A DNA stretch of 64,000 nucleotides from Anaeromyxobacter sp. (GTDB lineage Bacteria; Myxococcota; Myxococcia; Myxococcales; Anaeromyxobacteraceae). This document shows positions 9,827 through 34,982 of this stretch, in pieces. The notes below the pieces were generated by a model that searched no databases, was not told the origin of the DNA, and saw only the letters and a program-made list of their open reading frames with translations. The position numbers and the translations under genes were made by a program. The stretch's first letter is position 1. Each line of letters begins with the position of its first letter. The stretch spans positions 160,001 to 224,000 of the forward strand of contig JASGJN010000026.1 of assembly GCA_049840735.1 (NCBI GenBank), given 5' to 3'.

Positions 9827-9878
9827 CCTTCGACTTCGCCGCCGCCCGAAGGGCGACGGCTACGCTCAGGGCGAACGG
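9827..9878 (+). repeat. Structured REP-like repeat, copy 1
   Basis: CCTTCGACTTC-[gccgccgccc gaa gggcgacggc]-TACGCTCAGGGCGAACGG. Confidence 0.9.
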
Positions 9879-9919
9879 GGTTGGCGAGCGGGGGCTGCGA
9901 GAGGCCCGGAGCCGGACCG

Positions 9920-10568
9920 CTAGTGCGCCGCCGGCGCCCCGTCCAGCCCGCGCTGCGCCGGCGAGAGCCCGTGCGTCAAGAGCTGCAGCACGTGCTGCCG
10001 CCAGGTCTCCGGCGGCAGGGGCGACGAGACGAACGGCCGCACGGCCTCGTGCGCGGAGGCCACCAGCGCGGAGAGCCCGCCCACCGTCACCACCGCCAGC
10101 ACCGGGTCCACGCCGCGGCCGGCGTCGCCGTTGGTGCCGATGGAGGCGGCGGCGCGGCGGACCGGCTCGAGCAGCGCCGGCTCGGCGGCGGTGAGCGAGG
10201 AGAGGAACGGCGCGCCGTCGAGGTACTCGCGCACCAGGATCTGCGCGCCCTGCGGGTCGCGGCTCATGGCGTCGAGGTAGGCCGCCACCACCGTCTCCGG
10301 GCCACCCGGCCCGGCCTCGATCAGCGCCGCGATTCTCGTTGGTGGCGGTGAGCCACACCGAGCGCAGGATGTCGAGGTAGAGGGCGCGCTTCGACGCCCA
10401 GTGACGGTAGATGAGCGCGACGTTGCACGAGGCGCCGCGGGCGATGCCCTGCACGCGCGCGCCGTGATAACCGCGCTTCGAGAACTCGGTGCGCGCCGCT
10501 TCCCAGATCCGCTCCGCGATCCCCGCGCGCGGCGGGCCGATGCGACGAGTGGCGACCGAACCGTCCAT
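9920..10568 (-). CDS. TetR/AcrR family regulator (frameshift at ~10333)
   Basis: RIWEAARTEFSKRGYHGARVQGIARGASCNVALIYRHW HTH; C-terminus in ORF 9920..10591. Confidence 0.85.
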
Positions 10569-10590
10569 GAATGCCGATTTACTGACCACA

Positions 10591-10604
10591 TTGACGCGGG
10601 TCAA
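10591..10604. promoter_or_regulatory. Palindrome TTGAC-N4-GTCAA between divergent tetR and dinB
   Basis: ttgacgcgggtcaa in an AT-richer intergenic stretch. Confidence 0.4.
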
Positions 10605-10714
10605 GTCGGCCTTGGTCACCCTTGGGCCGCGTCGGTGCCATCATCTATAGAAGGGCGGGGTGGAGCCCCTGGATGCCGCGGTGCGGCAAGGTGCCCAGGG
10701 GCCTGCCAGCGAAG

Positions 10715-11921
10715 ATGACCGGCCCGCGGACCATCCTGCACCTCGATCTGGACGCCTTCTACGCGTCAGTGGAGCAGCTCGACCACCCAGAGCTGCGCGG
10801 CCGGCCGGTGATCGTGGGCGGCACGGCGCGGCGCGGCGTGGTCTGCGCGGCCAGCTACGAGGCGCGCCGCTTCGGGGTCCGCTCGGCCATGCCCACCTCG
10901 CGGGCCCACAAGCTCTGCCCGGACGGCGTCTTCCTGCCTCCGCGCTTCGAGCGCTACGGCGCGCTGTCCGAGCACATCTTCGGCATCTACCGGCGCTACA
11001 CGCCGCTGGTGGAGCCGCTCTCGCTCGACGAGGCCTTCCTGGACGTCTCCGCCAGCCGGGCGCTGCACGGCGCCGGGCGCGACATCGCGGTGGCCATCAA
11101 GCGCGCGGTGCGGGGCGAGTGCGGCCTGGCCGTCTCGGCCGGCGTGGCCGAGGTGAAGCTGGCGGCCAAGATCGCCACCGACCTGGGCAAGCCGGACGGG
11201 CTGGTGGAGGTGCCGGCCGGCGGGGTGGAGGCCTTCCTGGCGCCGCTGCCGGTGGGGCGGCTGTGGGGCGTGGGCGAGGTGACCGAGGCGGCGCTGCAAC
11301 GGGTGGGCGTGGCCACCATCGGCGACCTGGTGCAGAAGCCGGAGATCGTGCTGGCCGGCGCCATCGGCGCCTCGCACGCGCGCGGGCTGCAGGCGCTGGC
11401 TCGCGGCGAGGATCCGCGCGAGGTGGTGCCGGACGAGGCGGCCCGCTCGGTGGGCGCGGAGGAGACCTTCGGCGAGGACCTGGCCGAGCGGGCGGCGCTG
11501 GAGCGCGAGCTGCTGGCGCAGGCCGGGCGGGTGGGGCGGCGGCTGCGCCGGGCCGGGCTGTCGGGGCGGGTCGTGACGCTCAAGGTGAAGTACGCCGACT
11601 TCACGCTCATCACGCGGCGGGTCACCCTGGATCACCCCACCGACGACGACCGCGCCGTCTTCCACGCCGCCCGCGCGCAGCTGGACCGGGTGGACCTGTC
11701 CCGGCCCATCCGCCTGACCGGCATCTCGGTCTCCGGCTTCGCCGGCGAGGAGGAGCGCGAGCAGCTGGGGCTCTTCCCCGGCGTGAGCGAGGGCCCGCCG
11801 CCGCCGGCCGACGCCGAGCGGCGGCGCCGGCTCAACGCCGCGGTGGACGCGCTGGCGCAGAGGTTCGGGCGCGGGACGGTGACGCCGGCGGATTCTGGCG
11901 GGAAGGGACGACGAGGACTGA
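10715..11921 (+). CDS. dinB: DNA polymerase IV (Y-family)
   Basis: ILHLDLDAFYASVE, AASYEAR.FGVRSAM, SLDEAFLD; restoring GATTC at 11891 to GATC gives the end TPADLAGRDDED* at 11921. Confidence 0.95.
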
Positions 11922-11958
11922 GCGCGTCCTGCTGGGGTCGGGCCGGCCATCACAGGCC

Positions 11959-12006
11959 CCGTTCGTCCTGAGCGTAGCGCCCGCGCAGCGGGCGCGGAGT
12001 CGAAGG
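11959..12006 (-). repeat. Structured REP-like repeat, copy 2
   Basis: Reverse complement: GTCCTTCGACTCC-[gcgcccgc tgc gcgggcgc]-TACGCTCAGGACGAACGG. Confidence 0.9.
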
Positions 12007-12196
12007 ACAAGTCCTCGCGCGCTCCCCTTCGTGGTTCGACTCCAGGCCGGCCGTCGGATCCGGCGGCGCGAGCCCGGCCGTCCACTCAGCCGGGAGCCGG
12101 GGCGACGGGCTGCCCCGCCCCCCGCTCGCGGCGGAGGCCAGCGGGGGCGGGCCGCCAGGCTTCCCCCGGCCGCGCGTGCGCCCCAGGTTTCTCTCC

Positions 12197-33200: not shown

Positions 33201-33230
33201 TTGACGATCATGATCCCGGCGCGTTAACCT
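33201..33230 (+). promoter_or_regulatory. Putative sigma70 promoter of the small basic peptide gene
   Basis: TTGACG-N18-TAACCT; two GATC sites overlap the -35 and spacer; A-tract upstream. Confidence 0.55.
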
Positions 33231-33296
33231 CCGTGCAGTTGTCCATTGAAAAGTGTCCATCGATTCTCGAATGGACCGTTCCGAGGAGGGAACAAG

Positions 33297-33383
33297 ATGC
33301 CCGCGAAGAAGACTGCCAAGAAGGCCCCCGCGAAGAAGGTCGCCGCCAAGAAGCCGGCGAAGAAGGCCGCGAAGAAGAAGTAA
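33297..33383 (+). CDS. 28-aa Lys/Ala/Pro-rich histone-H1-like peptide MPAKKTAKKAPAKKVAAKKPAKKAAKKK
   Basis: GAGGAGG RBS, ATG...TAA, all Lys codons AAG, followed by a terminator; below the ORF-track length cutoff. Confidence 0.8.
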   Translation: MPAKKTAKKAPAKKVAAKKPAKKAAKKK

Positions 33384-33405
33384 GCGGTCCGAACTTCGAA
33401 GCGAT

Positions 33406-33440
33406 GCTGGCGGCCGCCTCCGGGCGGCCGCTGCTTTTTT
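33406..33440 (+). terminator. Rho-independent terminator
   Basis: gcggccgcc-tccg-ggcggccgc stem followed by tgcTTTTTT. Confidence 0.85.
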
Positions 33441-33461
33441 GGGCTCCAGGAGCGCATTTCC

Positions 33462-34922
33462 GTGTCGCTCACTGCCGGAGAGATCGCCGCGCTGGTCGCG
33501 GAGCTGGCGCCGCTGGCCGGCGCGCGGGTGGGCGCCGCCCGCGTCCACGCCGAGCGCGCGCTGACGCTCGAGCTGTTCGGCCGCGACGGCGAGGTGCTCC
33601 TCCTCCTCTCCGCCGAGCCCGAGGTCACCCGCCTCCACGCCGCCGCGCGGCGTCCTCCCCAGCCCCCGCACCCCTTCGCCTTCCAGGCCCCCCTCCGTCG
33701 CGAGGTGGAGGGTGCGCGGCTCTCCGGGGTGGAGCTCCTCCCCGGCGACCGGGTGGTCGCGCTCCGGCTGGAGCGGGCCCGCGGACCGGTCCAGCTGGTC
33801 GCGGAGCTGACCGGGCGGAGCGGGAACCTGTTCCTGGTCGGGCCGGACGGGCTGGTCCTGGCCTCCGCCGGGCGCGACGCCTCCCCTCGCGGAATGGCGC
33901 CGGGGCGCCCCTGGGTCCCGCCCGCGCCGCCTCCCGGGGCCGGCGCGGGGCCGGCGCGCCGCTTCGAGCCGGCCCTGGGCGCGCCCTGGCCCCTCTCCGC
34001 CGCCGTGGAGGCCGCATACGAGGCCCGCGAGGTGGCGCGGCGCCTGGTCGAGGCCCGCCGCCGGCTGCGCGAGCCGCTCCGCGCGGCCCTGGCCCGCTCC
34101 ACGCGCGCCCTGGAGAAGCTGGCGGACGAGGCGGCCCGCGTCCCCGCCGCCGAGGAGGACCGGCGCCGGGCCGACCTGCTCAAGGCCAACCTGCGGCTGG
34201 TGCGGCGGGGGGCGCGGGAGGTGACGGTCACCGAGTGGACCGCCGAGGGGCCGCAGGAGGTGACGCTCGCCCTCGACCCTGCCCTGACCGCCCAGGCCAA
34301 CATGGAGCGGTACTACAAGCGCTATCGCCGCATCGTGGACAGCGCCGCGCGGGTGGCGGAGCGCATCGCCGAGGTCCGGACCCGGGCGGAGGCGCTGCGC
34401 GGGCTGGTGGCGGCGCTGGACGAGGCGCCGGCCGAGGCGCTCCCCCGGATCGAGAAGGAGGCGCGGCGGCTGGGGGCGGGCCCGCGCCCTGCCGCGCAGC
34501 CCAGGCGCAAGCGCGACGAGCCGCTGCCGCCCTACCGCACCTTCCGGTCGCTGGCCGGTGCGGCGCTGCTGGTCGGGCGCGGCGCGGCGCAGAACGACCA
34601 GCTCACGCTGCGCGTGGCGCGCGGCAACGACCTCTGGCTGCACGCCCGCGGCCTGCCCGGCGCGCACGTGGTGGTCCGGCTGGAGAAGGGGAAGGGGCCG
34701 GACCAGGAGACGCTGCTCGACGCCGCCCACCTGGCGGTGCACTTCTCCGACGCGCGCGGCGCGCCGCAGGCCGACGTGGCCTACACGCGGGCCAAGTACG
34801 TCCGCAAGGCCAAGGGCGCCGCGCCCGGCGCCGTGACCTACAGCCAGGAGAAGGTCATCGCGCTCCGGAGCGAGCCCCAGCGGCTGGAGCGGCTGCTGAA
34901 CGAGGAGGAGGCGGCGGAGTAG
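33462..34922 (+). CDS. NFACT/Rqc2 (RqcH/FbpA-like) ribosome quality control family protein
   Basis: DRVVALRL, AELTGRSGNLFLV, ANMERYYKRY, VGRGAAQNDQLT, DLWLHARGLPGAHVVV, KYVRK. Confidence 0.88.
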   Translation: MSLTAGEIAALVAELAPLAGARVGAARVHAERALTLELFGRDGEVLLLLSAEPEVTRLHAAARRPPQPPHPFAFQAPLRREVEGARLSGVELLPGDRVVALRLERARGPVQLVAELTGRSGNLFLVGPDGLVLASAGRDASPRGMAPGRPWVPPAPPPGAGAGPARRFEPALGAPWPLSAAVEAAYEAREVARRLVEARRRLREPLRAALARSTRALEKLADEAARVPAAEEDRRRADLLKANLRLVRRGAREVTVTEWTAEGPQEVTLALDPALTAQANMERYYKRYRRIVDSAARVAERIAEVRTRAEALRGLVAALDEAPAEALPRIEKEARRLGAGPRPAAQPRRKRDEPLPPYRTFRSLAGAALLVGRGAAQNDQLTLRVARGNDLWLHARGLPGAHVVVRLEKGKGPDQETLLDAAHLAVHFSDARGAPQADVAYTRAKYVRKAKGAAPGAVTYSQEKVIALRSEPQRLERLLNEEEAAE

Positions 34923-34933
34923 CGAGCGGTTGG

Positions 34934-34982
34934 CCTTCGACTCCGGGCCTGCTGGCGCAGGCCCTACGCCCAGGCCGAACGG
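34934..34982 (+). repeat. Structured REP-like repeat, copy 8
   Basis: GGCCTTCGACTCC-[gggcctgc tggc gcaggccc]-TACGCCCAGGCCGAACGG; nearly identical to copy 4. Confidence 0.9.

Follow-up and report, generated by a model that had tools for sequence, protein, structure and literature searches.

A stretch of 64,000 nucleotides from an Anaeromyxobacter genome (GenBank assembly GCA_049840735.1, contig JASGJN010000026.1, positions 160,001 to 224,000; the window, in what follows) carries a family of short structured repeats at the ends of its genes. What are these repeats, and what has multiplied them? The initial annotation listed eight copies in the window, and all eight are present with the core, the inner hairpins and the outer stems ascribed to them. 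We have traced the family through the source genome (G000; 6.67 Mb in 26 contigs, with the window on contig C26) and its relatives, and we consider it probable that the repeat is a non-coding DNA element of ~500 copies, which would fold as a single-stranded DNA (ssDNA) hairpin and be bound and cut by a small GIY-YIG nuclease encoded on contig C21, the cuts seeding further copies through host repair. Throughout, the strand of a copy is the one that starts with its CCGTTCG tag (the tag strand), which is opposite to the strand first annotated.

The working set in G000 comprises 526 copies of long, short and nested forms, and a tag-anchored search gives 441 long copies. Core matches number 464 in this genome, compared with 0 in two 1.5-Mb order-4 Markov sequences. 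The stems had been proposed to covary, and this is borne out. In the alignment of the eight window copies, 118 of 118 cells pair over 15 pairs, seven of which change on both sides; 0 of 500 shuffles pair as highly, and slid controls pair at 31-44%. Genome-wide, inner-stem positions 2-6 are all paired in 408 of the 441 long copies (mean 47 and maximum 62 in 200 partner shuffles), and the inner stems comprise 96 distinct arms. The three variable outer pairs are intact in 432 of the 441, a figure that is partly due to the construction of the search. The scaffold had further been described as sequence-free; it does vary, but nearly all of it is G/C, and 183 of the 441 copies have one of just three arm sequences.

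Read along the tag strand, a copy begins with the tag CCG(T/C)TC and continues with a stem of 5 bp, variable in its middle pairs, then T-GA-G opposite C-GA-A, a single T and a C-G pair, past which the long form has CGTAG opposite CGGAG. The distal part is of three kinds, namely a loop of 2-3 nt, a G/C hairpin ending in a GNA triloop, or an entire copy nested inside; the tail is C-A-G in most G000 copies. Among 148 gene-flanking copies the tag is CCGTTC in 88 and CCGCTC in 37, and the pair past the single T is CG, GC or TA in 145, a feature not demanded by the search, which places this T as a bulge. Across phyla, TA and CG replace each other as the pair outside the tandem GA (317 and 42 cases; other combinations at most 10 each).

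According to the available text of PMC10085684, facing pyrimidine-GA-purine units give tandem sheared G·A pairs in DNA. T-GA-G and C-GA-A on the tag strand likely form two such pairs, while the complementary strand would set TC opposite TC. The internal loop that had been called invariant is indeed conserved, but it is likely paired for the most part through G·A on the strand opposite to the one annotated. The inner loops are also asymmetric between strands. On the tag strand, 189 of 404 copies have a GNA loop, which C-G closes in 186; on the opposite strand 6 do, and GNRA loops number 7 and UUCG loops 0. The stability of GNA mini-hairpins in DNA greatly exceeds that in RNA, according to the available text of PMC13037366. 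Between the ssDNA and the RNA structure that the initial annotation had allowed, the GNA counts favour the former and speak against the latter. The short forms are closed by C-CT-G or C-TT-G, both compact DNA loops. Overall, the repeat is likely a rod of single-stranded DNA whose proximal part is fixed and whose distal part is free. In the nested class, an inverted repeat copy, sometimes itself hairpin-bearing, stands in place of the distal part of another copy (in G000 at C17:126659, C17:218670, C20:157711, C21:263151 and C21:264092, for example); nesting accounts for most of the 40 rows in that class and is the usual form at sphingomonad loci.

No candidate mobiliser had been seen in the window, and none is there; the partner nuclease lies instead on C21. 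Among three GIY-YIG matches and six weak Y1 matches in G000, only the GIY-YIG gene at G000:C21:263786-264079 has copies within 3 kb. RAYT, which the initial annotation had considered, drops out as a partner (0 copies within 3 kb of the six Y1 matches), while GIY-YIG, another of its candidate families, is represented by this gene boxed by copies. Its broader proposal of a non-autonomous element resembling repetitive extragenic palindromic (REP) sequences, with an unseen mobiliser, agrees with the repeat-boxed gene and with the recurrence of the pairing across phyla.

At the C21 locus (L010) there are 12 repeat copies, between moxR and a DUF58 gene. The nuclease core has 98 residues and keeps Y7, Y17, R27 and E64, and Y7, Y17 and E64 are invariant among 36 nuclease sequences. 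Pfam yields PF01541 only, NCBIfam has no model for the protein, and the predicted structure is a GIY-YIG fold (pLDDT 92) with UPF0213 and Slx1 as the nearest structures. The crude codon-model caller used for gene context (5216 genes, 77% coding, impaired by assembly frameshifts) does not include this open reading frame (ORF), because its reading frame continues into the repeat array. Inward-pointing copies also box in seven more short genes, as is expected at such a density; their N-termini are not related to one another, and they presumably include DnaJ- and HydF-like proteins.

We have scanned GTDB for relatives of the C21 nuclease and used the best 80 of 584 confirmed matches, from Pseudomonadota, Chloroflexota, Myxococcota and other phyla. 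The strict repeat pattern occurs at 61 of these 80 loci, compared with 4.2 in shuffles, and most loci failing it carry repeat variants. In a structure-based search, 91 of 97 clade loci prove to carry the repeat, and at 59 of them copies on both sides point inward; the controls give 2 of 17 UPF0213 loci, 1 of 13 Ssn-type loci and 1.7 for shuffled sequence; as the clade loci carrying the repeat are related to one another, these counts are not independent. G000's own UPF0213 gene has no repeats nearby.

The sharpest evidence is that repeat and nuclease subtypes match. We have compared 37 genomes of the genus, 14 bearing the nuclease gene and 23 lacking it, which are kin and hence not independent. 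A variant core is present in 78 copies in G009 and 104 in G020, and in 0 copies in the 35 others; only these two genomes encode the nuclease subtype flanked by the variant core (97-100% identity; others at most 64%). G009 and G020 may be sister species, so the match counts as one event. Based on linkage and covariation, the nuclease very probably recognises the repeat hairpin.

The nuclease ORF exceeds 250 codons at 31 of the 97 clade loci, and most of these ORFs continue in frame, via a repeat-encoded linker, into the next gene (examples are L044:1992-3137, L071:2001-3410, L080:1992-2912 and L055:1992-2783). The predicted fusion partners include a SpoU/TrmJ methylase, MeaB, a TadA-like deaminase and a JAB protein.

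How does this pair relate to known nuclease systems? SsnA of Neisseria meningitidis (CDD cd10448) is a 94-residue GIY-YIG protein which cuts ssDNA beside an oriented hairpin and whose gene is boxed by repeats. In the available text of PMC11893778 (Chenal et al. 2025), mutation of Y6, Y17 and E64 abolished cutting, a swap of the stem sequence abolished activity, and the hallmark is strand-specific ssDNA cleavage just 5' of the hairpin, with none on double-stranded DNA or RNA; a transformation phenotype was shown there, and mobility was a hypothesis only. With Ssn and its NTS repeats the present system shares a single-domain GIY-YIG gene of ~95 residues, inverted oriented flanking hairpins, hundreds of dispersed copies, an unpaired 5' tag followed by a stem with a free distal loop, and a Tyr/Tyr/Glu catalytic set, in which Y7, Y17 and E64 correspond in number to Y6, Y17 and E64 of SsnA. 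On the other hand, the repeat here has the CCGTTC tag, the tandem GA, the bulged T and an optional second hairpin, and part of its stem varies freely, whereas SsnA is intolerant of a stem swap.

Both partners also fall outside Ssn in direct comparison. Of the 526 copies, 0 overlap any of the 55 matches to the SRM consensus in G000, and among the best 80 of 584 GTDB loci SRM matches occur at 3, in the wider flanks only. We have built a protein tree from 22/57 clade rows with 15 Ssn-type, 15 UPF0213 and 4 UvrC rows over 92 alignment columns, SsnA itself not being included. The 15 Ssn-type proteins (some NTS- or SRM-flanked) group together on one side of a branch with 100/100 support, and none of the 22 clade rows is among them, though the root is unreliable and the nuclease clade is not resolved as one branch side (20% of bootstraps). 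Profile scores of the C21 nuclease are 68 bits for Ssn-type, 102 for UPF0213 and 154 for its own clade. UPF0213/YhbQ/YazA proteins (PDB 1ZG2, 1YWL) are its best sequence and fold matches, but they stand on a separate branch (93/95) and, as the controls above show, seldom have any repeat-like match nearby. CDD may give both these proteins and the nuclease clade the label cd10456. Judged by its sequences, the system resembles Ssn/NTS but is not a member of it.

Ssn-type loci have features of their own that touch on the repeat. On a Planktothrix plasmid (L172; NZ_LR882964.1), an Ssn-type GIY-YIG gene is flanked by TGTC-tagged hairpins that also have T-GA-G facing C-GA-A, which suggests that the G·A motif is common to part of the Ssn side. 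In two same-order genomes, canonical NTS/CGTC hairpins flank Ssn-type genes (L121 and L122 in G027, L123 in G030). G027 also holds 20 short-form copies of the CCGTTC-tagged repeat and no gene of the C21 nuclease clade.

As for spread, the tag strand would fold whenever the DNA is single-stranded, and the nuclease would bind the proximal rod and, by analogy to SsnA, nick just 5' of the tag. GIY-YIG chemistry involves no covalent DNA link and no strand rejoining, so spread would need the host, whose repair or recombination would insert copies of the unit at tolerant sites immediately after stop codons. Both strands of a tag-to-tag dimer would be cut, a possible driver of array remodelling. Two inward-pointing copies together with the nuclease gene would make up an autonomous cassette, of which the window copies would be gene-less members. 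We lean slightly towards the view that the nuclease drives the spread of the repeat.

Turnover among relatives bears on this view. A search for empty orthologous sites had been recommended, and sites filled in one genome are indeed empty in a close relative; at the bacA-NUDIX junction, which is occupied in the window, there is no copy in the seven relatives whose loci cover both genes. Among 30 moxR-DUF58 junctions, 12 hold the cassette, 10 have the genes abutting, 3 have repeat relics without the gene and 5 have other inserts. One such other insert, of ~500-630 bp with inverted hexamer-repeat runs at its borders, is found at L189, L191, L192 and L202 (G046, G056, G053 and G019). Over a compared 400 kb, 88 copies in 46 clusters are found in G006, which bears the gene, and 36 copies in 27 clusters in G014, which lacks it. 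Twenty clusters are common to both, 18 are absent from G014 and 6 from G006, where a length difference is missing for one of the 18 and for three of the 6, and 7 and 1 clusters are without orthologous flanks. Across the genus, median loose-pattern matches are 67 per Mb in the gene-bearing and 35 per Mb in the gene-less genomes, with overlapping ranges. The comparison of G006 and G014, with that of G002 below, fits upkeep and remodelling in the presence of the gene and decay once the gene is lost; it is no proof of new insertion.

Several observations weigh against a spreading nuclease. Cleavage and movement are predictions from sequence. Filled and empty sites vary in insert length and show occasional short direct repeats but no constant target duplication, their flanks being 85-99% identical in genomes of different species; neither a target duplication nor a cut-site consensus was found in flank logos or filled/empty pairs. 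Of eight resolvable sites empty in G014, seven are filled in gene-bearing G002 and one in G006 alone, so that the difference is accounted for by decay in G014 no less well than by new insertion. By eye, G002 fills those sites mostly with other repeat arrangements, and G014 has decayed relics at two. Since G002, G006 and G014 are 89-97% identical in all pairings, gain and loss cannot be polarised. Among 151 genomes of the phylum, 7 have at least 10 short-form copies, 4 of which are gene-less, and 2 of the 5 gene-bearing genomes in this sample have at most 3 copies of the short-form pattern. In the genus, gene-less G023, G005 and G019 reach 63-72 loose-pattern matches per Mb. The cassette occupies one locus in 12 of the 14 gene-bearing genus genomes and is rare in viral contigs (2 loci), indicating mostly vertical inheritance. 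ViennaRNA folding with DNA parameters gives neither strand an advantage; these parameters are without sheared-pair energies. Finally, in this assembly the C21 nuclease ORF is not closed by a stop codon behind the domain and continues through the array, to 345 codons. The absent stop may or may not be an assembly indel error. In the window, metK (22006-23249) and ahcY (25218-26700) are frameshifted while relatives align continuously, which points to indel errors in the G000 assembly.

Some of these points would suit a nuclease that recognises the hairpin without spreading it, that is, a domesticated enzyme of ssDNA restriction or recombination control like SsnA in Neisseria, with copies growing by slippage and gene conversion. 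Besides the fixed locus in 12 of 14 genomes, the tandem arrays, which reach 15 copies, suggest local amplification, G002 and G006 often differ in repeat arrangement at the same junction, and SsnA itself has its transformation phenotype with mobility only hypothesised. We regard this explanation as unlikely. The cassette adjoins many different genes across phyla, and the nuclease subtype has a second site in G009/G020; the variant repeat has dispersed to 78-104 copies only alongside its own nuclease subtype; and 252 of the 354 clusters in G000 are single dispersed copies.

The placement of the copies raises the question of whether they act in RNA, as terminators or exonuclease-blocking 3' stabilisers kept by the host at gene ends, the link to the nuclease being historical. 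Of the 526 copies, 263 lie in convergent gaps (which are 820 of the 5190 gene gaps in G000), 205 in tandem gaps, 17 in divergent gaps, 39 inside ORFs and 2 at contig ends; the tail end of the repeat lies a median of 20 nt from a stop codon, 20 clusters are kept in both G006 and G014, and G-T pairs outnumber A-C pairs by 18 to 10. All this would suit RNA elements. But a T-run follows the hairpin in 0 of 441 copies on the tag strand and 14 of 441 on the other, orientation relative to transcription is weakly biased (124 vs 81; singletons 60 vs 46), the loops are of the DNA-type GNA and not GNRA or UUCG, and many sites are empty in close relatives. We consider the RNA explanation quite improbable, and prefer the ssDNA element described above; the copies may have a side effect on mRNA. 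Rfam gives no match at gathering level in the window, where neither tRNA nor tmRNA was detected, and at four nuclease loci gives only three weak matches far below the gathering score, which we take as chance.

The density of copies among large contigs varies more than 10-fold; it is lowest on C2 (16 per Mb) and highest, at 195-226 per Mb, on C21, which bears the nuclease gene, and C19. The neighbours of seven large arrays share no common family; 11 of 15 have Pfam matches, all ordinary save one RNase_H_2-family gene next to a single array.

The long form is also the target of an insertion sequence (IS). All five IS110 copies in G000, which are near-identical and ~1.43 kb long (L297-L301; C26:118167-119622, C4:42292-43742, C21:159942-161389, C22:206800-208247 and C26:545076-546525), interrupt the repeat at one AG dinucleotide, in each case in a long copy with the same outer-stem subtype; another 93 sites of this kind are unoccupied. 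In the non-coding right end of the element (309 nt), 9 nt are complementary to the right target half and 7 nt repeat the left half, and this end likely encodes a guide RNA to the repeat. Matches to both target halves are what is expected of a bridge or seek RNA. The REP-targeting elements ISPpu9, ISPpu10, ISPa11 and ISRm19, which we take to belong to the IS110 family, are the closest parallel to this insertion at one position in a repeat, but the target in G000 is the GIY-YIG-linked repeat and not a GTAG REP. Insertion of IS elements into REPs as such is known (PMC1525189, available text).

It is hardly credible that the long form is instead a REP of the GTAG type which a RAYT/HUH transposase spreads, or that the resident IS110 mobilises it. 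The long form does have GTAG immediately before the inner hairpin, and G000 does have six weak Y1 matches and five of five IS110 copies inside the repeat. But no REP-like family surrounds the Y1 matches, GTAG is an internal motif which the short forms lack and which is replaced by others in other phyla, only 8 GTAG-hairpin modules lack the outer core, and IS110 interrupts the repeat at a single dinucleotide, as expected of a user of the target. One Y1 match (L005:432-2055, G000:C17) is bracketed by a 30-nt, 97% inverted pair, which resembles the terminal inverted repeats of a tyrosine-transposase element unrelated to the hairpin repeat.

Known REP families offer further comparisons, made with the available text of their descriptions. 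GTAG REP/REPIN-RAYT systems resemble the present one in having non-autonomous hairpins with one domesticated boxed gene, BIME-like arrays, persistence after gene loss and service as IS targets, but the partner here is a GIY-YIG hydrolase and not an HUH transposase, and GTAG is internal and not terminal. CGTC REPs, as described in the text of Di Nocera et al. 2013 (PMC3733652), have an 8-9-bp stem starting with AT, a 4-5-nt loop, a CCA tail and CGTC, TGTC or CCTC tags. They share with our repeat the unpaired tag, the extragenic position downstream of ORFs or between convergent genes, the dimers and clusters, and the lack of a nearby tyrosine transposase. The differences are that the tag here is CCG(T/C)TC (compared with the text description of CGTC, the consensus figure not included), that the 5-bp stem has G (or A) as its first base and gives way to GA pairs and a bulge, and that dimers mostly have their tags inside, facing each other (58 of 80), while CGTC dimers mostly have them outside. 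A literature search, which most subscription papers and figures lay outside, found no paper on the CCGTTC-tagged repeat or on this nuclease branch. It is conceivable, at a little less than an even chance, that we are dealing with a second, unpublished family of sequence-specific ssDNA nucleases, which would read G·A pairs and a bulged T with any distal sequence, and would copy their own hairpin without a transposase, making nested copies, arrays and in-frame host-gene fusions, with IS110 as a parasite.

Within the window, each of the eight annotated copies adjoins at least one predicted gene 3' end, as had been reported, and the statement that they often lie between convergent genes applies to four (13710, 23382, 23440 and 26802) with our crude gene caller. 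The long-form copy at 9825..9878 (minus strand) lies between two minus-strand genes, 41 nt beyond the 3' end of 9920-10291. That at 11959..12008 (plus) has a GCA triloop, and its own TGA is the stop of a DinB-like ORF ending at 11971. The copy at 13710..13757 (minus), also with a GCA triloop, lies between convergent metallophosphoesterase and response-regulator genes, and its outer-stem subtype is identical to that of the IS110 target; beside it is a degenerate partner copy with an intact right half (13759..13800, plus), which the initial annotation had overlooked. Two long-form copies, 23382..23432 (minus) and 23440..23489 (plus), make a tag-to-tag dimer with a 7-nt spacer between metK and tag; the first provides the stop of the tag ORF, and at the second the 3' end of the tag ORF reads through. 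The copy at 26802..26850 (minus), called at 26804 before and one core base short, is downstream of ahcY and overlaps the stop of the convergent ORF 26838-27446. Another long-form copy (28487..28538, minus) lies between bacA and a NUDIX gene. Directly after the NFACT gene ending at 34922 is the one at 34932..34982 (minus; 34934 before), whose single core substitution falls in the tandem GA; these two of the eight deviate by one base. Two short-form copies had been overlooked as well, one at 30256..30288 (minus), without the inner hairpin and with a fully palindromic outer stem, and one at 63194..63226 (plus), with a slightly altered tag. Host ORFs terminate at the TGA within the repeat's TGAG at 11971, 23420 and 26838 in the window, and there are seven such cases genome-wide at cluster edges.

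The general type, a small GIY-YIG nuclease with hairpin repeats as in Ssn and REP systems, is already known; the nuclease branch and its repeat are undescribed in the literature searched. The origin and spread of non-GTAG REP-like repeats are unsettled, and the 2013 survey, in its available text, found no transposase for CGTC repeats (PMC3733652). Here, a second nuclease branch beside Ssn comes with a precisely defined substrate. With the natural specificity variants of G009/G020, the gene-loss comparison of G006 and G014 and a genome of ~500 copies, recognition and spread are directly testable. In addition, a predicted site-specific ssDNA nuclease of 98 residues, whose site would tolerate any distal insert, is a candidate tool.

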